In this document: positions 2,025 through 50,672 of the stretch, piece by piece
Layout of the letters: each line of letters begins with the position of its first letter
Numbering within the stretch: the stretch's first letter is position 1
Translations under genes and position numbers: made by a program
Origin: an uncultured Clostridia bacterium
GTDB taxonomy: Bacteria > Bacillota > Clostridia > TANB77 > CAG-508
DNA length: 64,000 nt
Assembly (NCBI GenBank): GCA_944387445.1
Contig: CALXEX010000001.1
Location: 870-64,869 of the forward strand
Direction of reading: 5' to 3'
The notes under the pieces: generated by a model
The model's database searches: none
The model's input: the letters and a program-made list of their open reading frames with translations, nothing else
Told to the model about the DNA's origin: nothing

Positions 2025-3389
2025 CTACTTTAATCCAATCTTTTTCATTGCTTCATTAATATTGCTGACACCTATTATATCTAATTTATATGTTTCTTTC
2101 AAGTCTTTTTTGTTAGATTCTGGAATAATACAACTCTTAAATCCCAACTTTTCTGCTTCTTTCAACCTTTTATCAATTAGATTAATTCTTCTCACTTCTC
2201 CTGTTAGCCCTACTTCTCCAATAATCACCATATCTTTTGGAATTGGTACATTTTTAAAACTAGAAACCACCGCCATCATCATACCTAAATCAATAGATGG
2301 TTCATTTACTCGAATACCTCCTACCAAATTCAAGTAAACATCTTGACTTCCTAACATGATACCTGCTCGTTTTTCTAGTACAGCAATCAATAGTGCTAGT
2401 CTGTTATAATCTGTTCCATTTGCCGTTCTTTTTGGAAATCCAAAAATACTTTGTGTAGTCAATGCCTGCATTTCTATCAAAATAGCTCTTGTTCCTTCTA
2501 TACTAGATACAATACAAGACCCTGCTGGATTATCTTCTCTTTCTGAAATTAATATATCAGATGGATTTGTAATTTCACACATTCCTTCTTCATTCATTTC
2601 AAACATACCAATTTCATTGGTTGATCCAAATCTATTTTTTACACCTCGTAATACTCTATATGAAAAATATCTTTCTCCTTCTAGATATAGCACCGTATCT
2701 ACCATATGTTCTAAAACTCTAGGACCTGCAATATTTCCTTCTTTAGTTACATGGCCTATAATAATTGTTGTAATGGCTCTTGATTTACAAACTCTCATCA
2801 CTTGTGAAGTAATCTCTCTTACTTGGCTAACACTTCCAGCAGCAGCTGATATTTCTTCTGAATACATCGTTTGAATGGAATCAATAATCACAAGTTTAGG
2901 ATGAATTTCTATAATAGCTTGATTGACAACATCTATATCTGTTTCACCTAAAAATAAAATATCATCATTATTAATACCTAGTCTATCGGCTCTCATCTTA
3001 ATTTGTTCAGCAGACTCCTCTCCTGAAACATACAAAACTTTTCCTTCACCTTTTACTTTATCACATATCTGTAAAATTAGAGTAGACTTTCCAATTCCAG
3101 GCTCTCCTCCAAGTAACACTAAAGAACCTTTAACAAGTCCGCCACCTAATACCCTATCTAGTTCTCCAAAACCTGTTGAAGTTCTTATTGTTTCCTTTGC
3201 TTCATAAGAATTTAATTTTTGTGGCTTATTTTCACTTTTTGCTAAATCTTTGTGTGCACCTGATTTAGTTTCAACCACTTTTTGCTCGTAAAACGTATTC
3301 CAACTATTACAAGCCGGACATTTTCCAAGCCATTTACTAGATTCATTACCACACTCACTACATACAAAAATTGTTTTACTTTTTGCCAT
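2025..3389 (-). CDS. radA: DNA repair protein RadA/Sms
   Basis: 454-aa ORF. Zn-ribbon CSECG...CPAC, Walker A GGEPGIGKST, KNRFG motif and Lon-like C-terminal domain. Confidence 0.93.
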   Translation of the reverse strand: MAKSKTIFVCSECGNESSKWLGKCPACNSWNTFYEQKVVETKSGAHKDLAKSENKPQKLNSYEAKETIRTSTGFGELDRVLGGGLVKGSLVLLGGEPGIGKSTLILQICDKVKGEGKVLYVSGEESAEQIKMRADRLGINNDDILFLGETDIDVVNQAIIEIHPKLVIIDSIQTMYSEEISAAAGSVSQVREITSQVMRVCKSRAITTIIIGHVTKEGNIAGPRVLEHMVDTVLYLEGERYFSYRVLRGVKNRFGSTNEIGMFEMNEEGMCEITNPSDILISEREDNPAGSCIVSSIEGTRAILIEMQALTTQSIFGFPKRTANGTDYNRLALLIAVLEKRAGIMLGSQDVYLNLVGGIRVNEPSIDLGMMMAVVSSFKNVPIPKDMVIIGEVGLTGEVRRINLIDKRLKEAEKLGFKSCIIPESNKKDLKETYKLDIIGVSNINEAMKKIGLK

Positions 3390-3497
3390 TTTTATTTTCT
3401 CTCCTTTTGCCTCTAAAACAAAAAAAGTATAGCATATATTTTAAAATTTTGCTATACTTTTATAGACAATTTTACGCTTGTCATGTTGTTTTGTATC

Positions 3498-4262
3498 TTA
3501 ATTTTTATAAACATCATATTCAAAAGCTGTTACACCTTTATCGTCATAAATTGTTAATTTAAAATATTTTGAATATCCATCTTGATACGTATATGTCCAA
3601 TATCCTAATTCATCAGAACGATATTTATTATCTTCTTCTGGCTCTCCATATGCTGCTACAACTTCTTCTAGAGAGCTTCCATTATGAATACCACCTGGTA
3701 AATTAAATGTTACTGGTTTTTTTGCATAAGTATTATCTACTTCAATAGACCAAATTTGACATTGCATTATATCTTTTGGAGTTGATGATATATTTGTAAA
3801 TCCTACAGAAACATCTGCATCATAATTTGGATTTTCAAGATCAATTGTTCCCGTAACTTTATCATTTTGATTAAGTATATAACCGTCAGAATATCCATAA
3901 TCTGCTAGATCAAATGTCCATCCGGCATTTTGTAAATTAGAATAATCAAAATACATCTTATAATTTGTACCATCTAAAGCAAATTCTGTATTTTTCCAAT
4001 CTGTTGAAAGTGTTGCAGGTGCAGAATTAGATGTATCTGTATCAGTTGTATTTGATACATTTTGATTTGTATCTGCAGTTGTATTGTTCTCTTCTTCTTC
4101 AGGTGTTTCTACTTCATTTACAACTGAATCAGAAACATTCGTATCCTTAGATGAATTTAAGAAGAAAACTGCAACTACTGCAATAATGATTAATAAGATT
4201 ACTACTGCTATAATGATTGCTATAGTAGAACCTTTAAATGATGATTTTTTATTATCATCCAT
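3498..4262 (-). CDS. Hypothetical membrane-anchored extracytoplasmic protein
   Basis: 254-aa ORF. Single N-terminal TM (IAIIIAVVILLIIIAVVAVFF), an acidic Thr/Asn-rich linker, then a globular domain. I recognise no family. Confidence 0.5.
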   Translation of the reverse strand: MDDNKKSSFKGSTIAIIIAVVILLIIIAVVAVFFLNSSKDTNVSDSVVNEVETPEEEENNTTADTNQNVSNTTDTDTSNSAPATLSTDWKNTEFALDGTNYKMYFDYSNLQNAGWTFDLADYGYSDGYILNQNDKVTGTIDLENPNYDADVSVGFTNISSTPKDIMQCQIWSIEVDNTYAKKPVTFNLPGGIHNGSSLEEVVAAYGEPEEDNKYRSDELGYWTYTYQDGYSKYFKLTIYDDKGVTAFEYDVYKN

Positions 4263-4390
4263 TATTCATTCCTCCTTTAAGTAATTTTTATATTTGCATT
4301 ATATATTAAGATAAAAGTAAAGTCAATTAAAATATTAATGATTTCGTAATACAAATTAGACTTTTTTTAATATTCCTGTTTATTAGTATT

Positions 4391-4813
4391 TTATAGTTCT
4401 GCTTTCTTTTTTCCAAATGCCCTTTTCTTGAACAAGAAGTCATGTATTTTTTTCCAGGTAACTTCTTGGTGTAAGAATTCATTTATTTCATTTTCTATTT
4501 TTTGTTGATGTGGTGTTAATTCTATTTTTATTTCTTTATTCCAGTTAATGTTTTCGAACCAGAAAACTTTAATTCTTTCCCAGAACCCTTGTTTTATTGG
4601 TAAGTTTTGTCCATTTGATGATTGCTCTTGTTCTTTTTGTACTTGTATTTTTGCTTCTTGTACTTTTTCTTCTACTTGCACTTCTTGAAGTTGCGTTTTT
4701 TCTTCTACTTGTCCATTTTTTACTTGTTCTACTTGTATTGGATTTTTTGATTCATTTTCTATATGCAATTCTATTTCATCACTTAAATTAATTTCATCTC
4801 TTATATCTGCCAT
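4391..4813 (-). CDS. Hypothetical Gln/Glu-rich protein
   Basis: 140-aa ORF with a low-complexity QVEEK repeat region and a Trp-rich C-terminus. RBS AAAGGAGAAG lies upstream of the ATG. Confidence 0.45.
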   Translation of the reverse strand: MADIRDEINLSDEIELHIENESKNPIQVEQVKNGQVEEKTQLQEVQVEEKVQEAKIQVQKEQEQSSNGQNLPIKQGFWERIKVFWFENINWNKEIKIELTPHQQKIENEINEFLHQEVTWKKIHDFLFKKRAFGKKKAEL

Positions 4814-6506: not shown

Positions 6507-7607
<1,101 letters not shown>

Positions 7608-7658: not shown

Positions 7659-7691
7659 ATGTCGCATTGACAAACAAACCTAATGCGACAT
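7659..7691. repeat. Hairpin-A intergenic repeat (ATGTCGCAT..loop..ATGCGACAT), flipped copy
   Basis: ATGTCGCATTgacaaacaaacctAATGCGACAT has a 10-bp perfect stem. It abuts the stop codon of the SLT gene. Confidence 0.85.
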
Positions 7692-12328: not shown

Positions 12329-13822
12329 CTATTCTTTATTTTGTCGCATTGAGTTCGTTTGTCTATGCGACATTTTTTTGTCGGGTCCATTGGGACCTGG
12401 TCCCGATGGACCCAAATTTAAACATAAAAAAATTCCTAACAACATAAAAAATGTAAATGGTGTTCCATTTCTCCAACCTTCTCCATTTATTAAAAAGACA
12501 CTATTGGCAAATTGGCTAATTAAGGCGATTTGTACAACAAATTGTATCGTCTTTTTCTTTTGCCACATTATTAATGGGAATAACCACATAATATACCATG
12601 GTTGAAAATTTGTAATTAGTAAAAACAGAAATACCACAAAAAAATATTCTACTTTTTTCATTTCTTCTCTAAATTTTATCTGTTTCTTGTATAACAATAT
12701 TACACAGGTAAAAAAATAGATAATGATAAATACACTTAGAAATGTTGAATTTACATTAACCACCAAATTTGGTATATCAAAATATTCCATTAGTATTATA
12801 TAAAAGTTTTTAGCAAATTTTTCTTGTTGCGTCATAATTCCACTTAACACTTGGATGTCTTGTATATATAGTAAATACGTAATAGCTACTATAAATATAA
12901 ATAACATACCATATATAAAACATTTCTTCAATCTTTCCCATGGTTTTTTATCTCTGAAATAGTAAATAATGATAAATGGCAATAGTAAAATTGCAAAATA
13001 TTTTATTGCTGTAGCCAATGCTAAAAATATAATACTAACAATGAGATTCTTCTTTTTTAATAAGAAATATAAAGAAGCTAATATACAGGTTACAACATAT
13101 ATATCATTATGTACATTTACTATTCCTTCTATAAACATATAAGGATTTAATCCATATAATAATACAAATAATTTTTTTCCTGTTAATTTATAAATCAAAT
13201 AACAATTTACCAAATGAATTATCACATTTAGTAATTTAAATAGCAATAAAGCAATATCAATATTACCGAAGGAAATTCCTGCTACGATTTTACATATGAC
13301 TGTCCACACTGGTCCATATACAACCGTTGTACTTCCCCAGTCATTTTCATACCCTTTTGCTAATACTGTATCTTGTTCTAAATATTGACTATTATCTCCA
13401 CTTTCTACAAAATCTTTTATTGTTACATAATATGGATTTTGTCCATATTGACTATCTAATCTTCCTACCCCTAAATAATAAAATACATCTGAACTTAGGA
13501 ATGGTACAACAATTAAAAAGATTAATGAAATGATAGCTATATACATATACATGTGTTTATTGTTTTTGAATAGTTTTTCTCTGTTTTTTACAATTAAAAA
13601 ATAAACTATGGTTAATATAGCTAAAATTGTTATATATATTATGGTTTGCTCTATTCTATTGGTATCATTTAAACAAAATTTAAAATATTCGTTAAAATTT
13701 AGTATGGTTCTATTTTCTAATAGATAGTTTATAGATGGTATTGCAAATAAAATCGCTCCTAGCGCAAAAACGATTAAGATGATTTGTTTTGCTTTTATAA
13801 ATTCTGCTACTTTTTCTTTCAT
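12329..13822 (-). CDS. Polytopic membrane protein, possible GT-C-type glycosyltransferase. The C-terminal tail is encoded by the repeat element.
   Basis: 497-aa ORF with more than 10 hydrophobic segments. The last residues (GPSGPGPNGPDKKMSHRQTNSMRQNKE) are translated from the intergenic repeat family. Confidence 0.45.
   Translation of the reverse strand: MKEKVAEFIKAKQIILIVFALGAILFAIPSINYLLENRTILNFNEYFKFCLNDTNRIEQTIIYITILAILTIVYFLIVKNREKLFKNNKHMYMYIAIISLIFLIVVPFLSSDVFYYLGVGRLDSQYGQNPYYVTIKDFVESGDNSQYLEQDTVLAKGYENDWGSTTVVYGPVWTVICKIVAGISFGNIDIALLLFKLLNVIIHLVNCYLIYKLTGKKLFVLLYGLNPYMFIEGIVNVHNDIYVVTCILASLYFLLKKKNLIVSIIFLALATAIKYFAILLLPFIIIYYFRDKKPWERLKKCFIYGMLFIFIVAITYLLYIQDIQVLSGIMTQQEKFAKNFYIILMEYFDIPNLVVNVNSTFLSVFIIIYFFTCVILLYKKQIKFREEMKKVEYFFVVFLFLLITNFQPWYIMWLFPLIMWQKKKTIQFVVQIALISQFANSVFLINGEGWRNGTPFTFFMLLGIFLCLNLGPSGPGPNGPDKKMSHRQTNSMRQNKE
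12341..12415. repeat. Hairpin-A repeat plus GC-rich GGWCC palindrome module
   Basis: TGTCGCATtgagttcgtttgtctATGCGACA is followed by GGGTCCATTGGGACC-T-GGTCCCGATGGACCC, a near-perfect 15-bp palindrome. The block overlaps the last ~28 codons of the upstream CDS. Confidence 0.85.
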
Positions 13823-20452: not shown

Positions 20453-21013
20453 TTAGATCTGTTTCAACTTATCTTTCTCTATTTTCTTTTGATATCTATC
20501 CTCTTCTGAAAAAATGCAACCACAATATTTTTGCATATATAATCCTAGTTCTCTTGCTTTGGCTTGGCCTTCTCTAAATCCAACTCGAAAATCTCTATAT
20601 AAAAATTCAACATCATATTTTTTTGCCATTTGGTTTGCCACTTCTATTAATGCTTCATGATTTTGATAGGGACTTACTAATAAGGTTGTAGAAAAATGGG
20701 TATACCCATTCTCCTTTGCATATTTGGCTGTTTGCTCTAATCTTACTGGATAGCAATATTGTTTACATCGATTTTGCAAATCTCCAATGACATGTTTGCA
20801 AAATTCATCTAGTCCATAGTTTTCTTCAAATATAGCTTTTACATCAATACTTTTGGTATATTCTTTTAAGCAATCTCTTCTTGCTTTATATTCCATATAT
20901 GGATGAATATTCGGATTAAACCAATATACGGTTGGCTCAATTTCTTCTTTTCTAAGTGAATCTATACAATATACACTACATGGTGCACAACAAGTATGTA
21001 ATAATAGTTTCAT
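20453..21013 (-). CDS. queH: Epoxyqueuosine reductase QueH (DUF208)
   Basis: 186-aa ORF beginning MKLLLHTCCAPCS, with further conserved Cys residues (CGCIFS). Confidence 0.8.
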   Translation of the reverse strand: MKLLLHTCCAPCSVYCIDSLRKEEIEPTVYWFNPNIHPYMEYKARRDCLKEYTKSIDVKAIFEENYGLDEFCKHVIGDLQNRCKQYCYPVRLEQTAKYAKENGYTHFSTTLLVSPYQNHEALIEVANQMAKKYDVEFLYRDFRVGFREGQAKARELGLYMQKYCGCIFSEEDRYQKKIEKDKLKQI

Positions 21014-21033
21014 ATTTCCTTCCTTTCTTTGCT

Positions 21034-21141
21034 TTGTCGCATTAGGTTCGTTTGTCTATGCGACATTTTGGTCAAAATGGACCTGGTCACAATTTTCCCG
21101 ATTGTCCCATGTCGCATTGGGATCAGATCCTGATGCGACAT
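21034..21141. repeat. Composite intergenic repeat: hairpin A + GGWCC spacer + hairpin B
   Basis: TGTCGCATtaggttcgtttgtctATGCGACAT, then tttggtcaaaatGGACCtGGTCAcaattttcccgattgtccc, then ATGTCGCATtgggatcagatcctgATGCGACAT. The block fills the ruvB-queH gap. Confidence 0.9.
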
Positions 21142-22151
21142 TACATATTTTCTTGATATGGATACCCTAAATGCTTATATGCTGGTGGTAAAACCACTCT
21201 TCCTCTCAGAGTTCTTGCAATAAATCCAATTTGGATTAAATATGGTTCATAGACATCTTCAATGGTATCTACTTCTTCACCTACTGTCGCAGCTAGTGCT
21301 TCAATTCCTACTGGTCTTCCAGCATATTGTACAATCATGGTATCTAATATTTTTCTGTCTATTTCATCTAATCCTAGCTCATCTATTTCTAGCTTATTTA
21401 ATGCGTGTTTTGTAATTTTTAATGTAATATCTCCATCACCTAACACAGCTGCATAATCTCTAACTCTTTTTAAAAGTCTATTTGCAATTCTTGGTGTTCC
21501 TCTTGATCTTCTGGCAATTTCTATAGCAGCTTCTTCTTCTATGTTTACATCTAGGATTCCTGCAGATCTTTTTACGATTTTTGTTAAATCCTCTACAGAA
21601 TATAACTCTAATCTATGCACAATTCCAAATCTATCTCTTAATGGTGTTGTCAATGACCCAGCTTTTGTCGTAGCACCAATTAATGTAAATTTAGGTAAAT
21701 CTAATCTGATGGACCTTGCACTTGGTCCTTTTCCGATAATAATATCTAATGTGTAATCCTCTAAAGCTGGATACAAAATTTCTTCTACACTTTTACTAAG
21801 TCTATGAATTTCGTCTATAAACAAGACATCAAATTCTGAAAGATTGGTAAGAAGTGCTGCCAAATCTCCTGGTTTTTCAATGGCAGGTCCAGAAGTGATT
21901 TTAATATTGGAATTCATTTCATTAGATATGATATTCGATAATGTTGTTTTTCCAAGTCCTGGAGGTCCATATAAAAGAACATGGTCTAATGGCTCCCCTC
22001 TTTTTTTTGCTGCTTCTATATAAATCTTCATATTTTCTTTGATCTTATCTTGACCAATATATTCATCTAATGTTTTCGGTCTTAATGAATTTTCTAGTCG
22101 TTCTTCTCCTGTATTTTCTAGTTCTGGACTAATAATTCTGTCTTCATCCAT
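21141..22151 (-). CDS. ruvB: Holliday junction branch migration ATPase RuvB
   Basis: Walker [10 protein letters not shown], Walker B FIDEIH and sensor motifs. The likely start MDEDRI at 22151 is preceded by AAAGGAGG. Confidence 0.93.
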
Positions 22152-25416: not shown

Positions 25417-25473
25417 ATGTCGCATTAGGTTCGTTTTTCTGTGTCGCATTGACTTCGTTTGTCTATGCGACAT
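25417..25473. repeat. Hairpin-A repeat with a duplicated left half
   Basis: ATGTCGCATtaggttcgtttttctgTGTCGCATtgacttcgtttgtctATGCGACAT. Confidence 0.85.
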
Positions 25474-25482
25474 TGATGACAC

Positions 25483-25527
25483 AAAAATAGACCTAAATAT
25501 TAGCGTATTTTCTAATATTTAGGTCTA
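25483..25527 (-). terminator. Rho-independent terminator of dnaJ
   Basis: 16-bp perfect stem TAGACCTAAATATTAG / CTAATATTTAGGTCTA with an 8-nt loop. The T-run is on the minus strand. Confidence 0.8.
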
Positions 25528-42370: not shown

Positions 42371-42620
42371 ACATATACTCCTCAAAAATATATCTAGAAA
42401 AACTCACATTCTCCCTTCTTATTTTATGAATTTCTTTTTATTTCATTCATTTAAAAGATATTTTTTAGTAATTACATATAATTATAAAAAAATAAACAGC
42501 TTATTACACAACACATTAAAATACTGTTGTATCCTTGACTATAATTTATGTATCATTTTGGAATTTATAGATTTCAATTTTTGAATTTTTAATAAACTTT
42601 GATTTAAAATTATAAATAAC

Positions 42621-42671
42621 ATTGGGACCATGTCCAAATGGACCCGACTCAAACTAAGACCCAATAGACCC
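42621..42671. repeat. GC-rich GGACC/GACCCAAT module of the intergenic repeat family
   Basis: attGGGACCatgtccaaatGGACCCgactcaaactaaGACCCAATAGACCCAAAA. Confidence 0.7.
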
Positions 42672-44678: not shown

Positions 44679-47600
44679 TTATTCTACCGTATAAATTTGC
44701 ATATTGATTGTTGCATCTTCTGGTACACCATACTCCCTTAAGAACTTCTTTAAATCAAATTCATTATTTGTAACATAATTTGATTTAAATTCTGCTCCAT
44801 TAAGCACTACTTTTATTGGTGCATTATCTATATTATTTCCTGTGTATATAGTAATTTCTGCATTATTTGCGATATTGATATTTTTACCTTTATCACTTAA
44901 TAATACCGTTCCTTTACCAGTAACAGTTCTTAAGTTATGTTCTTTATTGATATCTTCGCTTTCTTCAATATCCTTAAAAGCATTTTCCAAATCTTTTGTA
45001 TTATATGCATTAAATATTTTTTCATCATATTGTCCATTTAGTAAATCATCAAGATCATCTGATGCTTTTGTAAATCCTATTGCATATAATTTAGATTTAA
45101 TTCCATTTACTTTTTGATTTCTGATTTCTTTTGCATAATCGTCAACTTTGCTTGAATCACCTTTATTGTTATTTCCATCAGTAATTAATATTGCACTTGT
45201 AACAATGTCTTTATCAACTTGTGATTTTACCTTCTCTTTTGCTACTTTTAATCCTGATGCGATATTAGTTCCTGATTGTAATCCTGGTTTTGTTACTTTA
45301 TATCCGATGTAGCTTGACGTTTTGTCAAGAATTTGTAATAGGTCAACATCTATCACATAAGTTCCATCTCCATTGTCTTTAAATTTGCTCTTATCTGAAT
45401 ATGAACTTCCTTTACCATTATCTTCAAATATCTTTTTAAATGCTTTTTCAGGATCTTTTTGTTTACTGCAATATTCTGCAAAGTCAATTGCTGCATTATA
45501 TTGTGTTTCAGTAAATCTGTATCTATATTGATCTTTTACTTTTTCTGGATCTGTCATAAATCCTGTATTTAGTACGACTCCATCACAGAATCCTACAATT
45601 GCAATTGAGCGTTTTTCTCCAATATTATCTCCTAAATATGATTCTACGAAATTATCTAATGCTGTTTTTAATTGATACCATCTTGTATTTTGATATCCAC
45701 CTGTTGCTAACACATCAGTTTCATCCTTACTTGCATCTACTTTTGAGCCTAAACTTAATGTCATATCTACTACTAAAACAACACTTTGTTGACCCAATTC
45801 TGTTTTTGTTTCGTAAATATTAATTTCTTTCATTGCATTATTAGTAATTTTCTCTGAAGTATTTCCTTCACCATCTGTTGCTTGATTTGTGATTGTTGTT
45901 CCTAATGCTTCATTCATAACTTTTACTGTAAATGTAATTGTTACTTTTCCATTTCCTGGTACAGATAATTCTAATTTACCATTCTTCATGTCTTCTATTT
46001 GAGCGTCAGATAATTTTGTTGTTTCTCCACCAGTTGTTGTTACACGAATACCATCTTCGGTTAATTCTGTATTTGCTGGTATTTCTTCTTTAACTGTTGT
46101 CTTACCTGGTACTGGTGAGTTATTTTCTAATACAACCTTGTAAGTAATGGTTGATCCGACTTTTATCTCTTTACCATTTGTATCTGAATATTTATGGATT
46201 TCAATATCAGATTTCATGTTTGCAGTTATAATAGCGGTTGCATCTTTTTCTATTGGTGTTGTTGGATCTTCTCCTTCTGTTCTATTTTCTGCATTACCTG
46301 TCATTGTAGCAATATTTTCAATTGGCAATGTATCTTTATCTGTATTATCTCTATCCATACTTCCTATTTCATAAGTTACAACAACTTCTACAGTTTCTCC
46401 TGGTTCTAATGTTGCTTTTTGTCCTTCTAATAAGTCTTCTCCTTCTATTTTAGCTGGATTGTTTATTGTAATATTTGTTCCTGCTGGTAATACTGTTGCA
46501 CTTACGACTGTTACATCTCTGTCATCTGTTAGTTTGAAATCTTTTATGGTAATATTTCCAGAGTTTGTTGCTGTAATTTTGTAAGTTAATACATCTGTTT
46601 TATTAGCTTTATCATTATATGTGATTGTATTGGTTTCTTTATCTTCTACACCTGGTTTTGTTGGTGTTTTATTAACCTTTGTGATTTCTTTCTTAATTGA
46701 AGATTCAAGGTCATAATCTACCATAACGGTTGCTGTACTTTCTTCTTCAGGTGTTTCCTTACTTGTAACATTTGCTGTATTAGACATTTCATCTACGTTG
46801 GCTACATCAGATAATTGTACTTTATAAGATAATGTTAAGATATAACCATCATTAGGTTCTATGGTTGTTGATACATTTGCTGTATTTAATAAGTTATCAT
46901 TTATATTGTCAGTTGATTTATTAACATTTTTTGGTGTTCCCATTTCACCATTATCAATAGGTGTCACACTTACAATGTTAACTAGTCTTTCATCTGTTAC
47001 ATTTACATCATTTAATGTTACATTTCCTTCATTTTTTACCACAATGTTGTAAATGATAGTATCTCCATTATTTACTGCTTGTGAATCATATACTGTCTCT
47101 GTTCCTTTTTCAGTAACTTTATTTTGATCTATAATATTTGGTGTTTGTGTTCCGTTAAGAATAACTTGTTCAGCTGTCTTTTTAATGGTTATGTCTGGTA
47201 CTTCACGTCTATTGGTTATGTCATAACTTGTTACTGTTGCTTTATAACCTACAACTTCATCTTCTGAAACTGTATACTTAATTTCTTTTCCATTTGAATA
47301 TTTCGGAACATCTTCAAATGTATATTCCCAGTTGTCACTTTCTTTTACTATTTTTGATTGAACGATATTGTCATTTGCTAATAAATTAACTTTTATTTCT
47401 TCTGGTCTTTTTCCATCATGGTTATTAACATCATCCCAAGTTTTTTGACCATGAATATCGATTGTTTCTGGAGTATATTTATTAATCAAATTGTATTTGT
47501 TTTCTGGGTCTACTGATACTGTATATTTAGATTCAGGAATTGTTTCTTCTGCAATTTGATATTCAATTTCTACTCCATTTTCATATTTTGGTACATTTGC

Positions 47601-50600
47601 AAAACTATATTTCCATTCACCATTTTGGTCTGCTTCTACATCCATTCTAGCATATTCTTTAAATTCTCCTTCTGTTCCGACTCTGTAATTTAAAATAACT
47701 GTAATTTTAGTAGGTCTCTTTCCATCTCTGTTACTATCATCATCCCATTTTTTGGTTCCTTCAATAGTTTGACTTCCTGGCTGAATTGTATTGGTAAAGT
47801 TGTTTCCATCTTGAGTTGTGTCATATCCTGTTACTGCAACTTCTCTTACTGAATATTTATATTCTTTTCCTGTCTCTAAGTTGTATCTTGGTAATCCCGT
47901 AAAGCTATATGTTCCATTTCCTGTTACGGTTGTTGTGGTTGCTTCTGGTGTTGTTGGGTTTCCATCTCTTAATAATTCAATCGTTGCTGTTAATGTACTA
48001 GGATCTTCTGGTGTTACCCATGTCTTTGTTCCACTAATTCCAGCTGTATATTCTTGTTTGATGATATTTGTAAAGTCGTTTCTAACTTGATTTGTGTCAT
48101 ATCCTGGTACTGGTACTTCTTTTACTGAATATGTATATTCGTGTCCATCTGTTAAATCATATTTAGGTAAATTGTTAAAGCTATATGTTCCATTTCCTGT
48201 TACGGTTGTTGTGGTTGCTTCTGGTGTTGTTGGTTCTCCATCTCTTAATAATTCAATCGTTGCTGTTAATGTATTAACATCTTCTACTGGTGTTATCCAT
48301 GTCTTTGTTCCACCAATACTTGTTGTTGCATTTTCATCTATATTCGTAAAATTGTTTTCATCTTTTAGAGTGGTAAATCCGTCTACTATTAGTTCTTTTA
48401 CAGAATATGTATATTCGTGTCCATCTGTTAAGTCATATTTGTCTAATTTATTAAATGCATATGTGTTATTTCCTGTTACTGTTGTTGTCGTTGGTGGAGT
48501 TGTTGGTTCTCCATCTCTTAATAATTCGATGGTTGCTGTTAATGTATTGACATTTTTATCTGTAATCCATTTCTTTTCTCCACTAATTTGTTCATATTCT
48601 TTAATGACAGTATCTTCAGTTTGATTTGTTGGTGTTCCATCTACTTTTGCATCAGCATTTCTAATAACTTTTGTATCTGTTCCTGTAAATGGATTTACAC
48701 GAACAGAGAATGTTACAGTAGCTGTTCCACCGTTTTCAGCAACAGTTACATCAATTCCCTCATTTAATTGTTTTTCTTCATAATTTCCTTGATTATTCAC
48801 TTTGATTGAATCTGGAACAAGTGTTGTTCCTTCTGGTACTGTATCAGATACTTTTACAGTTCCAGCTGTTTCTCCATGATTTGTTAATGTAATTGTATAT
48901 GTAATCACATCTAATTCATGAAGCTCTTTTCCTTCATAAGCACTTGATTTTACTGCTGTTATATTGGCTACTTTTGTTTCTTCTGAAGGTACTGGTTCTT
49001 CAGGTGTATTTGGATCTTCTGTAATATATGCTGTATTTTGAACTTTTGATGTGTAGTCATTTTCTACTGTTTTTTCTACAGCTGTTACTACAATTTCTAC
49101 TTTAACTGTTTTTTCGCCTGGCACAGCAATAGAATAGTTTCCACTTGTTAATTGTGCTTCTGTTATTGTAGTTTGTTCATTACCTTCACCATCAAACAAT
49201 GTTGCACTTTCAAATTCTGTTCCATTAGGTGTTGAATCTCTTAATATAACTGTTCCTGCTTGGTTTCCTTTATTAGTTAATTCAATTGTATATTTAATTT
49301 GTTCTCCTACTTTAACTGATGTTTTGTCAGCCTTCTTCGTAGCAGTGATATCTACTGTGTTTACTTCTTCTGTATCTGTTGGTTTTTCATTATCTCCAAT
49401 CAATGCCACATTTGCTATTACACCATCAATATTGGTTACTTCTACTGAGAATACAACTTTTGCCGTCGAATTTTCTGCTACATCTACTAAAATGCCAGAA
49501 ATTAATTCATCAGCTGAGTATGTTTTATCTCCTACTGTCACATTTCCGTGCATTTTTGCATTTTTTAATATGTTTGCTAACTCTTTATCTTTTACTATGA
49601 TACTTCCTGGTACTTTACCTGTATTTTCTACAGATATTGTATATGTAATAATATCTCCAACTTTTGCTACATTAACTGGTGTTCCTTTTCTTGTAATCAC
49701 ACTTGTTTTATCTGTTTTAATGATTGATGTTTCTGTTGGATTTCCTTCATTACTTTCTTCACCATTAGCGATAGCAACATTTGAAATTGTTCCTGTTGCA
49801 TCATCATTAACTCTTACTGTAAATTCTACTGTTGTTGTTCCTTTAACCTCTTCTGTTGATGCATCTACATCTACTAACCATCTTAAAGATGTTACATTAC
49901 CTTCTGCATCTGTAAATGTTTCCACATCTCCCATACTAGATACATATGTTGTACCTTCTGGTATTGCGTCTGTTACATAGATTCTCTCTATTTTTTCATT
50001 TGTTTTGTTTTGTACAGTAATCGTATATGTAATAGTTTCTCCAGGTTGAACCAATGTACTTCCTGATTGTGTTGTAGCTGTTTTGGTTACTGCAACATCT
50101 GTTGGTTCTACTGAATCAATATTACTGTATGCACTAGCAAATGATGCTTGCAATTCTCTTGGTGTCCAAATTTTATCTTCACCTTCTGCTACTAATCTTT
50201 CAGGAATTGTTACTGTTTCTTCTCTTGAAATGGTTGTTTCTTGAATATTGTCTGTTGTTGTAGTTATTCCTGTTTCTCCTGTTGTTGTACCTGTTGTTGT
50301 TCCAGTAGCTCCAGTTGTACCTGTTGCTCCTGTTCCAGCAGTACCTTGGTTAGCCCCTCCAGTAGTTGTTGTGTCTGCATCTGCTGTTTCAGTTGGTTCA
50401 GTTGTTGCTGGTTCTGTTCCTTCTGTTGCTTGCTCCTCAGCACTTTGGGTTGCTGGCTCTCCTGACTGTTCTTGTGTATCAGTCGTTGTTGGTTGTTCTT
50501 CTTGTGTTGTTCCAGTTGTTTGTTCATTGTAGCTTGCTAAATCTGTAGCTTCTGTTGTACCTCTATTTTTCAAGAATACTACAGTACCTACAATTGCTGC

Positions 50601-50672
50601 TATTAATAATACCGCTATAATGACAATTGCTACAATTGTTTTTTTGTCTGGCACTTTTGTATAACCTGCCAT
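44679..50672 (-). CDS. Giant surface protein: N-terminal TM anchor, Thr-rich stalk, multiple DUF11 repeats, five CnaB-type domains, further DUF11-like repeats and a C-terminal vWA domain
   Basis: 1997-aa ORF. Anchor is IVAIVIIAVLLIAAIVGTVVFL. DUF11 pattern is PGETITYTITVQN...V.D.IPEGTTYV. CnaB pattern is LTATIELLRDGEPTTP...YTYSVKE. vWA MIDAS-like motifs are VVLVVDMTLSLG and AILITDGNNN. No C-terminal LPXTG seen. Confidence 0.85.
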   Translation of the reverse strand: MAGYTKVPDKKTIVAIVIIAVLLIAAIVGTVVFLKNRGTTEATDLASYNEQTTGTTQEEQPTTTDTQEQSGEPATQSAEEQATEGTEPATTEPTETADADTTTTGGANQGTAGTGATGTTGATGTTTGTTTGETGITTTTDNIQETTISREETVTIPERLVAEGEDKIWTPRELQASFASAYSNIDSVEPTDVAVTKTATTQSGSTLVQPGETITYTITVQNKTNEKIERIYVTDAIPEGTTYVSSMGDVETFTDAEGNVTSLRWLVDVDASTEEVKGTTTVEFTVRVNDDATGTISNVAIANGEESNEGNPTETSIIKTDKTSVITRKGTPVNVAKVGDIITYTISVENTGKVPGSIIVKDKELANILKNAKMHGNVTVGDKTYSADELISGILVDVAENSTAKVVFSVEVTNIDGVIANVALIGDNEKPTDTEEVNTVDITATKKADKTSVKVGEQIKYTIELTNKGNQAGTVILRDSTPNGTEFESATLFDGEGNEQTTITEAQLTSGNYSIAVPGEKTVKVEIVVTAVEKTVENDYTSKVQNTAYITEDPNTPEEPVPSEETKVANITAVKSSAYEGKELHELDVITYTITLTNHGETAGTVKVSDTVPEGTTLVPDSIKVNNQGNYEEKQLNEGIDVTVAENGGTATVTFSVRVNPFTGTDTKVIRNADAKVDGTPTNQTEDTVIKEYEQISGEKKWITDKNVNTLTATIELLRDGEPTTPPTTTTVTGNNTYAFNKLDKYDLTDGHEYTYSVKELIVDGFTTLKDENNFTNIDENATTSIGGTKTWITPVEDVNTLTATIELLRDGEPTTPEATTTTVTGNGTYSFNNLPKYDLTDGHEYTYSVKEVPVPGYDTNQVRNDFTNIIKQEYTAGISGTKTWVTPEDPSTLTATIELLRDGNPTTPEATTTTVTGNGTYSFTGLPRYNLETGKEYKYSVREVAVTGYDTTQDGNNFTNTIQPGSQTIEGTKKWDDDSNRDGKRPTKITVILNYRVGTEGEFKEYARMDVEADQNGEWKYSFANVPKYENGVEIEYQIAEETIPESKYTVSVDPENKYNLINKYTPETIDIHGQKTWDDVNNHDGKRPEEIKVNLLANDNIVQSKIVKESDNWEYTFEDVPKYSNGKEIKYTVSEDEVVGYKATVTSYDITNRREVPDITIKKTAEQVILNGTQTPNIIDQNKVTEKGTETVYDSQAVNNGDTIIYNIVVKNEGNVTLNDVNVTDERLVNIVSVTPIDNGEMGTPKNVNKSTDNINDNLLNTANVSTTIEPNDGYILTLSYKVQLSDVANVDEMSNTANVTSKETPEEESTATVMVDYDLESSIKKEITKVNKTPTKPGVEDKETNTITYNDKANKTDVLTYKITATNSGNITIKDFKLTDDRDVTVVSATVLPAGTNITINNPAKIEGEDLLEGQKATLEPGETVEVVVTYEIGSMDRDNTDKDTLPIENIATMTGNAENRTEGEDPTTPIEKDATAIITANMKSDIEIHKYSDTNGKEIKVGSTITYKVVLENNSPVPGKTTVKEEIPANTELTEDGIRVTTTGGETTKLSDAQIEDMKNGKLELSVPGNGKVTITFTVKVMNEALGTTITNQATDGEGNTSEKITNNAMKEINIYETKTELGQQSVVLVVDMTLSLGSKVDASKDETDVLATGGYQNTRWYQLKTALDNFVESYLGDNIGEKRSIAIVGFCDGVVLNTGFMTDPEKVKDQYRYRFTETQYNAAIDFAEYCSKQKDPEKAFKKIFEDNGKGSSYSDKSKFKDNGDGTYVIDVDLLQILDKTSSYIGYKVTKPGLQSGTNIASGLKVAKEKVKSQVDKDIVTSAILITDGNNNKGDSSKVDDYAKEIRNQKVNGIKSKLYAIGFTKASDDLDDLLNGQYDEKIFNAYNTKDLENAFKDIEESEDINKEHNLRTVTGKGTVLLSDKGKNINIANNAEITIYTGNNIDNAPIKVVLNGAEFKSNYVTNNEFDLKKFLREYGVPEDATINMQIYTVE
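47790..48600. repeat. Three tandem ~273-280-nt near-identical coding repeats (CnaB-type domains)
   Basis: Long identical runs recur near 47845, 48118 and 48398, for example ccatctcttaataattcaatcgttgctgttaatgta and ctatatgttccatttcctgttacggttgttgtggttgcttctggtgttgttgg. Confidence 0.85.

Follow-up and report, generated by a model that had tools for sequence, protein, structure and literature searches.

The 64 kb window analysed here, a stretch of contig CALXEX010000001.1 from an uncultured Clostridia bacterium, has a GC content of about 29 per cent and is about 90 per cent covered by crude open reading frame (ORF) calls. It carries dispersed hairpins built on the 9-mer ATGTCGCAT. These hairpins probably constitute a hitherto uncatalogued family of repetitive extragenic palindromes (REPs) in uncultured low-GC (26–32% GC) gut Clostridia, spread by a TIRYT-like RAYT transposase, and are probably in the main relics of mobile DNA. 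A sequence-only reading of the window had compared them with REP/BIME- or MITE-type elements; this label is borne out by inverted clusters of exactly these hairpins, which flank the gene of a RAYT-like Y1 transposase in related genomes.

The 9-mer has 14 matches on both strands of the window, against 0.18 expected, and none of 100 shuffles reaches this number. The full hairpin, TGTCGCAT-N15-ATGCGACA, is found seven times (0 expected), at positions 7660, 12342, 21035, 21110, 25442, 35566 and 60623. All 14 nine-mers belong to hairpins with conserved loops, and none stands singly in a coding region. Seven full and three partial hairpins are distributed over six sites, all between genes or at gene ends (table 1), and the size and density of these 33-nt extragenic hairpins in many copies are those of REPs. 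The repeats reported by the sequence-only reading are genuine. Its archetype at 21034–21141 is made up, as described, of hairpin A (loop TAGGTTCGTTTGTCT), a spacer of 42 nt with GGACC and hairpin B, whose loop is palindromic; the unit B-spacer-A measures 108 nt, and the stems of B and A are alike. The recurrences of hairpin A that it listed (7659, 12341, 25417, 35547 and 60622) were all found, including the halves at 25417 and 35547, and the recurrence of B near 60665 is a degenerate, inverted copy. The names given to the flanking genes also hold: a CoaE/HD fusion, QueH, an Alg14-like protein, SerS and TypA, with MreB downstream of the 7659 copy.

Neither Rfam nor the literature searched describes these hairpins, in agreement with the view that they belong to no described family. 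The Rfam scan of the window gave no match at the gathering score, and the sole match of 20950–21200 at E ≤ 1 was RF02863 (20.1 bits against a threshold of 61 bits, E = 0.25). The literature search for the 9-mer returned just primers and unrelated matches, and a query combining RAYT and Firmicutes was dominated by unrelated papers.

A search for ATGTCGCAT-N11–19-ATGCGACAT in one genome from each species found at least 115 loci. About two-thirds of the loci listed come from metagenome-assembled genomes (MAGs) of 24–34% GC labelled uncultured Eubacteriales, Clostridia or Clostridium; high-GC matches have unrelated loops and were discarded as chance. Dozens of loci in related MAGs carry the stem with loops of four families. 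Loops A ([TA]GAGTTCGTTTGTC[AT], short form GTTCGTTTGTC) and B (TGGGATCAGATCCCA, short form GGGATCAGATCCC) belong to the window's lineage, and loops C (TGGGGACGTTTCTC, short form GGGGACGTTTCTC) and D (TGGGGACAGTCCCCA, short form GGGGACAGTCCCC) to a sister lineage. Because there are intermediate loops, e.g. TGGGATCGTTTGTTA, and variant stems with compensating changes (ATGTCTCAT...ATGAGACAT and ATGTCCCAAA...TTTGGGACAT), the family is a mosaic in stem and loop alike. Partial copies, composed of a loop fragment and one arm, are frequent. Several of the hairpin-bearing MAG loci are 75–93 per cent identical in nucleotide sequence to the window, whose own sequence was detected in chicken-gut metagenomes. 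A mini-ORF starting at the hairpin ATG (M-S-H-stop) was rejected as inconsistent across loop types. In what follows, the T strand is the one on which the loop reads GTTCGTTTG or GGGGACGTTTC, and R is its reverse.

The association with a transposase emerged when all ORFs of the related loci (designated L plus number) were screened with phmmer, which led to ORFs lying between inverted hairpins. In five loci (L045, L196, L198, L199 and L201), the stop codon of the upstream gene is followed by one to three A hairpins, the promoter region, the RAYT gene and about one or two A hairpins in reverse orientation; the loops of the upstream hairpins read GTTCGTTTG on the RAYT coding strand, with a T-run after each hairpin. 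In the sister lineage, the RAYT gene is located just upstream of radA, between C-type hairpins of matching polarity (L106, L040, L067, L080 and L117–L120). Around the gene in L040, L067, L080 and L117–L120, the stems differ from the main stem and the loop is kept. Locus L031 ends within the RAYT gene and includes its 3′ end and the matching downstream R-oriented hairpin before radA. In L116, a 68 per cent-identical RAYT, either a paralogue or an orthologue, occupies the L045 chromosomal locus in inverted orientation and is flanked by inverted GGGTCCATTGGGACCAGGTCC-type modules, the same as the window's GC-rich module at 12379–12410, 42620–42653 and 58697–58770 (degenerate at 21067–21108). The mosaic described by the sequence-only reading is real: since the hairpins flank RAYT in relatives and the GGACC modules flank it in L116, both of its components are RAYT-flanking repeats. 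Most likely, the GGACC-rich modules belong together with the ATGTCGCAT hairpins as REPs of a single system. RAYT lies upstream of radA in at least nine contigs of one lineage and between one pair of neighbour genes in L045, L116, L196 and L199; such conserved positions are compatible with vertical inheritance.

Two further features of these loci were observed. The RAYT cassettes of L045 and L116 are opposite in orientation between their shared neighbour genes and differ in the type of flanking repeat, which suggests an inversion of the entire REPtron (the RAYT gene with its flanking repeats). In L106 (3462–3493) and L031 (511–542), the ATG of radA is built from the last two bases of the right hairpin arm plus G (ATGCGAC-ATG-GCAAAAAGT), and no obvious Shine–Dalgarno sequence precedes it.

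The hairpin-flanked protein of the relatives is an HUH/Y1 protein of 255–272 aa. It matches Pfam Y1_Tnp with E-values of 1e-14 to 5e-17 (L045:2185-2952, L106:3538-4353, L040 and L080), and the homologous ORF of L067 aligns with these four proteins. With the NCBIfam models, the L045 and L106 proteins score 62–67 bits for REP_Tyr_transpos versus 21–23 bits for IS200. The HUH motif NHVHM and the tyrosine motif RYIHQNP...WSS are invariant in 45 homologues. There are at least 714 relatives of about 256–260 aa, annotated, where named, as ‘transposase [Clostridia bacterium]’ or ‘RayT’. The best fold match of the AlphaFold model (pLDDT 91.9) in the PDB is 4ER8, a complex of the E. coli RAYT with a REP hairpin (E = 5.7e-7, TM 0.73, root mean square deviation 2.6 Å), and the next structural matches are the IS608, ISDra2 and IS200 transposases; phmmer against the PDB sequences gave no match, the link to 4ER8 having come from the fold search. 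The protein has a Y1 fold and is closer to TnpA_REP than to IS200 TnpA. Its C-terminal approximately 100 residues form a confident helical domain in the model, with sub-threshold Pfam matches to helix-turn-helix (HTH) families (HTH_23, E = 0.056–0.11; HTH_19, E = 0.065).

The radA-linked RAYT genes of L040 (approx. 3830), L080 (approx. 3690) and L067 (approx. 5250) have in common an extra C (‘...TTA TTT C GGA/GGG AAT’), beyond which the +1 frame has no stop for about 85 codons, as far as the end of the HTH domain, despite sequence divergence among the three species. The UUU followed by the rare CGG codon is a candidate programmed +1 frameshift, which would yield two RAYT products, the catalytic domain alone and the full-length protein.

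REP/RAYT systems are reportedly the subject of Nunvar 2010, Bertels & Rainey 2011 and Ton-Hoang 2012. These ‘REPtrons’ are known from Proteobacteria such as E. coli and Pseudomonas (reviewed in PMC6006769 and PMC5581495). The Clostridia hairpins share with them the nature of the repeats (approx. 33-nt extragenic palindromes at high density, of several sub-types), their location mostly after coding regions or between co-directional genes, the syntenic Y1 HUH gene of related genomes with inverted repeat clusters on both sides, and an enzyme whose best structural match is the E. coli RAYT–REP complex. Unlike REPs, they have a long (15 nt) and conserved loop instead of one of 2–5 nt and are devoid of the 5′ GTAG/GT[AG]G foot; unlike REPIN/BIME elements, their dimers are head-to-tail and not inverted (PMC3733652). 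The enzyme differs by being about 100 aa longer, with the C-terminal helical HTH-like domain, and by falling below the NCBIfam RAYT cut-off, and the host is a Firmicute. No REPs of Firmicutes are listed in the catalogues consulted, and that of Di Nocera 2013 contains no Firmicutes (PMC3733652); according to Bertels, one RAYT group reaches Clostridia, where the flanking 16-mers are of low abundance (PMC5581495).

In the length of the protein and its C-terminal HTH-like extension, the Clostridia enzyme appears to resemble the TIRYTs, and it is a candidate member of TnpA_REP subclass 2.1. This subclass consists of long proteins with a C-terminal HTH, near whose genes no REP-like sequences were found, and has been equated with the TIRYTs of Di Nocera 2013 (Quentin 2018, PMC6006769). 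The HTH-type domain expected of such proteins would be Bac_DnaA_C, HTH_23 or HTH_28. The flanking inverted repeats of TIRYTs have GGGGWSAS in common (PMC3733652). Among distant homologues of the Clostridia enzyme (32–43% identity), eight of 33 have GGGGTCAG upstream and CTGACCCC downstream, which is the published TIRYT box (PMC3733652). Loop D contains an exact fit to this box (GGGGACAG); the fit of loops A, B and C is partial, with GGGATCAG in loop B and GGGGACG in loop C. Relative to the gene, the box has the same polarity in the TIRYT repeats as in the Clostridia hairpins, and some terminal inverted repeats (TIRs) also form moderately abundant repeat families. Unlike in TIRYT elements, however, the Clostridia box is placed in the loop of a separate conserved stem of 8–9 bp (TGTCGCAT/ATGCGACA) rather than in a long TIR, and the repeats are abundant and dispersed, as REPs are. 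A further difference is that REP-like sequences were reported to be missing near subclass 2.1 genes (PMC6006769).

Comparison of orthologous intergenic regions, proposed by the sequence-only reading, revealed differences in copy number and loop type between species. Upstream of serS there is one hairpin in L020, one and a half in the window and two in L001. Between dnaJ and the Alg14-like gene, 1.5 copies are found in the window, against none in L032. The site after ruvB holds B, spacer and A in the window, and A + A in L032; the typA leader carries a degenerate B + A in the window and A′ + A in L070. At the site between mreB and the next gene, six sister-lineage MAGs retain the stem, with four different loops among them. 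Because orthologous gaps differ in this manner, the hairpins are not statically inherited and turn over between species.

Some protein-coding genes of the window also differ from the related loci. The DUF2207_C membrane-protein gene at 62665–63729 is missing from L070, which has an A hairpin and a terminator there (L070 6427–6459). At 60792–62093 and 62094–62330, the window has an AAA_14 + DUF4143 ATPase gene that L070 lacks at the orthologous site; the region upstream of this gene contains three approximately 23-nt direct repeats (AATCACCACAAATCTTTGAAAT...). Locus L079 has two AAA_14/DUF4143 genes (1651–2931 and 3139–4443), each bracketed by B + A hairpins. Such genes may be mobile, or may attract the repeats as hot spots. 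As a partner of the repeats, the ATPases were rejected: they are hairpin-flanked in L079, but no consistent link was found.

The orientation of 77 copies at 45 independent sites was compared with that of the neighbouring genes. Same-strand stop codons are followed within 12 nt by 31 T-oriented and five R-oriented copies (23 vs 5 once duplicates are removed, binomial p = 0.0009); in the 60 nt ahead of start codons, there are 16 T and 24 R copies (12 vs 12 after de-duplication). In 18 copies, ATGTCGCAT overlaps the stop codon by exactly 1 nt, its first A doubling as the last A of the codon. Of the 77 copies, 43 have a T-run after the T strand and 12 have an A-run before it. The T strand also folds more stably than the R strand (−16.5 vs −11.0 kcal/mol for A, −15.2 vs −12.5 for C and −20.4 vs −16.8 for B). 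With a stable hairpin on one strand (folding free energy about −15 to −20 kcal/mol) and a T-run, right after a stop codon, these copies resemble intrinsic terminators. They differ from them in that the whole sequence, including a loop longer than usual, is repeated at unrelated genes and that many copies are in the non-terminating orientation or have no T-run. The R copies before start codons cluster 19–24 nt upstream, just outside the ribosome-binding site.

Within the window, the polarity noted by the sequence-only reading is present: the five copies assigned to gene starts read GACAAACGAAC on the sense strand, and the 7659 copy is opposite. Their positions need some correction. Four of the five indeed end 20–24 nt before a start codon, but the copy next to the Alg14-like gene lies upstream of a promoter-like site. 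Because this copy (25417–25473) is placed between the dnaJ terminator (25488–25527) and the promoter-like site (25409–25381), it is probably outside the leader of the Alg14-like gene. The 7659 copy, the sole T-oriented one, abuts the SLT-domain gene, with its first base being the final base of the TAA stop (TA-ATGTCGCAT), and lies ahead of the mreB promoter. The other five, all R-oriented, are found in operon-internal gaps, in leaders or upstream of the promoter-like site. The serS copy, next to a plus-strand gene, has an absolute orientation opposite to that of the four R copies next to minus-strand genes; in this small sample, orientation is predicted by gene context in 6/6 cases and by replication strand in 4/6.

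The 12341 copy and its GC-rich neighbour are inside the ORF tail of the upstream membrane-protein gene. This ORF reads through the GC-rich module and hairpin A (12329–12420) and acquires a repeat-encoded tail, GPSGPGPNGPDKKMSHRQTNSMRQNKE*, so the repeats may have displaced its original stop codon. The gene has weak, sub-threshold Pfam matches to PMT_2, EpsG and GT87.

A mechanism can be proposed in which a RAYT/TnpA_REP, with its HUH motif and catalytic tyrosine, would spread and rearrange the hairpins. By analogy with E. coli TnpA_REP and IS200/IS605, it would bind the hairpin folded in single-stranded DNA and cut and rejoin beside or within it, which could produce new copies, head-to-tail arrays, partial copies and exchanges of loop type at a given site. 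Judging from the sequences, the loop may carry the recognition box of the enzyme and the constant stem may present it. Each copy, once placed, would be a polar hairpin in RNA or DNA. The T strand (loop GTTCGTTTGTC or GGGGACGTTTCTC), with its stronger fold and T-run, would behave like an intrinsic terminator or 3′ stabiliser abutting stop codons, and T-oriented copies are putative terminator-like or 3′-protective hairpins. The R strand, with no T-run, would be tolerated in operons and leaders, as near the ribosome-binding site as possible (about 20–24 nt from the start codon). A selective filter of this kind, by which only the R orientation would be tolerated inside transcription units, could account for the bias in the window, where five copies of six have this orientation; that bias is compatible with a terminator-like polarity tolerated only at the ends of transcription units. 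Although this group of enzymes was reported to lack REPs, it is possible, if rather doubtful, that the HTH-bearing, TIRYT-like RAYTs found in Clostridia have a genuine dispersed REP family of their own, with a GGGGWSAS-like box in the hairpin loop and with head-to-tail arrays, built by their activity, that would serve the host as portable, orientation-dependent terminators exactly at stop codons. This would offer a Gram-positive model for RAYT function and join the REP and TIR worlds.

Several observations weigh against the interpretation of the hairpins as a RAYT-spread REP family. The search for a RAYT-like transposase suggested by the sequence-only reading was successful in related genomes, but the window itself has no Y1 transposase gene. 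Its radA-upstream site is occupied by an unrelated gene. In a metagenome containing 98 per cent of the window's words, a 16-kb contig joins the neighbour genes of the L045/L116 REPtron, about 133–141 nt apart; this RAYT-less joint has a depth of 10.6, versus 9.3–12 for the window, and recurs in three further samples. In the first sample, the depth of RAYT-like fragments is only 2–6.5. Since the radA site holds another gene and the RAYT-less joint has a window-like depth, the organism probably has no RAYT at either of the two known loci; the gene could be elsewhere. The copies in this organism may therefore be orphans, and mobilisation in this genome may have ceased. The analysis identified neither a transposition event nor a target duplication or cleavage site, and near-identical strains in four metagenomes showed no clean insertion polymorphism. 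The RAYT score of the enzyme (62–67 bits) is below the curated NCBIfam cut-off of 80 bits. The consensus of the 77 oriented copies with their flanks has no canonical 5′ GTAG/GT[AG]G or CGTC foot, only a weak T/A on the 5′ side and the T-run on the 3′ side, and adjacent oriented pairs are head-to-tail in 11 cases and inverted in one, unlike REP inverted dimers.

The same caution applies to the role of the T strand. The loop of the A hairpin has 9–15 nt, and several T-oriented copies have no T-run. Base-pair covariation in family A is not above shuffled controls, the copies being too alike and the outer loop pairs often mismatched. After this null result, G–U pairs were no longer taken to prove a strand-specific RNA in family A; only family C and hairpin B show a clear asymmetry. 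Gene orientation is confounded with replication direction, and a replication-strand insertion bias could be at work. The RNA evidence consists of Logan metatranscriptome contigs of thin coverage, breaking at repeats and too fragmentary for transcript ends. T-oriented copies near a downstream start codon tend to lose the T-run, as expected, but the trend is not significant (p = 0.25). A terminator scan flags hairpin B alone, on the antisense strand; the G–U-paired, more stable strand of this hairpin is the plus strand, antisense to the genes.

On the sequence-only reading, the orientation bias would stem from a role in the mRNA leader, such as stability, processing or protein binding, by which the hairpins would be conserved and polarised. 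Five of the six copies in the window do have the GACAAACGAAC polarity before a gene start, with four at nearly the same distance from the start codon, and R-oriented copies of the relatives cluster 19–23 nt ahead of start codons; the typA copies, downstream of a conserved promoter, should be transcribed, and in one relative a metatranscriptome contig extends from typA into a C-type hairpin. Nevertheless, we regard this explanation as improbable. The downstream genes are functionally unrelated, the Alg14-like copy is upstream of a promoter-like site, loop type and copy number vary at orthologous leaders, and the hairpin family flanks a transposase. The orientation survey in related loci, which the sequence-only reading had called for, found a strong bias after stop codons, with a polarity opposite to that proposed for leaders, but none before start codons once the sites were de-duplicated. 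A leader function would be, at most, a weakly supported secondary effect.

The archetype might alternatively be a miniature IS200/IS605-type element (PATE/MITE), with B as left end and A as right end, moved by an ordinary multicopy TnpA. The stems common to B and A in the 108 nt unit recall the left and right ends of IS608, the enzyme has the Y1_Tnp fold with IS608, ISDra2 and IS200 transposases as the next structural matches, and head-to-tail arrays would fit insertion 3′ of a regenerated target. As in IS200/IS605 and PATE elements, the Y1 HUH transposase is predicted to recognise sub-terminal hairpins as single-stranded DNA, no TIRs or target duplications were seen, and direct arrays are possible. 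However, single hairpins or A–A arrays predominate over B...A pairs; the units are single hairpins rather than left-end/right-end pairs, and A replaces B at orthologous sites. Unlike an insertion sequence, the Y1 gene shows no multiple copies among the loci sampled and keeps to conserved positions, such as the one upstream of radA, that fit vertical inheritance; no tnpB was seen, and the RAYT model scores far above the IS200 model. We consider this alternative even less probable than a leader function. That the hairpins are ordinary, immobile intrinsic terminators or chromosomal-protein binding sites, alike by descent or homogenisation (e.g. DNA-uptake-sequence-like motifs paired in terminators), is very improbable: T-oriented copies with a T-run do resemble terminators directly after stop codons and the density of the 9-mer (14 per 64 kb) would fall in the range of uptake sequences, but no 9-mer stands alone in a coding region, presence and copy number vary between species, many copies inside operons are in the non-terminating orientation, and inverted clusters flank a transposase gene.

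If the interpretation as a RAYT-spread REP family is correct, the Clostridia hairpins extend the taxonomic reach of REP/RAYT systems, studied almost only in Proteobacteria. A clear REPtron with a TIRYT-box-like loop in abundant, uncultured gut Clostridia would connect REP and TIRYT elements. As stem and loop vary independently, their separate roles in the choice of DNA by the enzyme are testable. The hairpins may act as polar terminators shaping operon expression and could serve as strain markers; they break short-read assemblies and extend or overlap the ends of ORFs, which is relevant to annotation.

The positions of the repeats are reported in table 1. The minus-strand folds around two of the elements listed, calculated for 12374–12420 and 58680–58800, have free energies of −25.2 and −22.6 kcal/mol.

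Table 1. Repeat elements of the window, with the strand of each and its relation to neighbouring genes.
Element	Position	Strand	Context
Hairpin A copy	7659..7691	-	loop GGTTTGTTTGTC on minus = T strand; T-oriented to minus-strand genes
Hairpin A copy	12341..12373	+	R-oriented to minus-strand genes; 23 nt before CoaE/HD start
GC-rich palindromic module GGGTCCATTGGGACCTGGTCCCGATGGACCC	12379..12410		same module family flanks RAYT gene in L116
Archetype hairpin A	21034..21066	+	R-oriented to genes; 20 nt before queH start
Spacer, degenerate GGACC-type module GGTCAAAATGGACCTGGTCACAATTTTCCCGATTGTCCC	21067..21108		
Hairpin B, loop TGGGATCAGATCCTG	21109..21141	+	overlaps ruvB TAA stop
Half copy (25417–25440) and full hairpin A (25441–25473)	25417..25473	+	absent from orthologous gap of L032
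Half copy (35547–35564) and full hairpin A (35565–35597)	35547..35597	-	after DUF1653 gene stop, 21 nt before serS start
Second GGACC-type module	42620..42653		inverted relative to 12375–12408, 85% complementary
GGNCC-type unit cluster with B-like core GGATCTGATCA	58697..58770		just past typA stop
Hairpin A copy	60622..60654	+	typA leader, R-oriented, 24 nt before typA start
Degenerate hairpin B copy	60664..60697		typA leader; L070 has A-type hairpin at matching position

At the archetype site (21019–21157), one contig of metagenome X3 (depth 6.2, 31-nt anchor) joins 21018 to 21158. The junction skips the whole repeat cluster and the last five codons of ruvB, with an imperfect direct repeat GAAA(A)TATG at both ends, and this single contig may represent a deletion variant in the population. 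Ahead of the repeats in the typA leader, a hairpin, GGCGTTTTTCAAGAAAAACTTTGGAAAACGTC, is conserved in L070 (60698–60760, minus strand) and follows a TTGACA-N17-TATAAT promoter, possibly as a leader or attenuator structure.

Two protein-coding genes of the window have particular features. The mreB gene (minus strand, approx. 6507–7524) has a 1-nt frameshift at 7339–7358, where the window reads AGAATGCTTCGGTAGAACTCC and five relatives read AGAATGCTTGGAAGAACTCC; its N-terminal approximately 60 codons lie in a different frame, which could indicate a pseudogene or an assembly error. The 1997-aa ORF at 44679–50672 encodes a large repetitive surface-type protein, with tandem coding repeats of 276 nt at 47382–48588 and others of about 309 nt nearby (75–85% identity).

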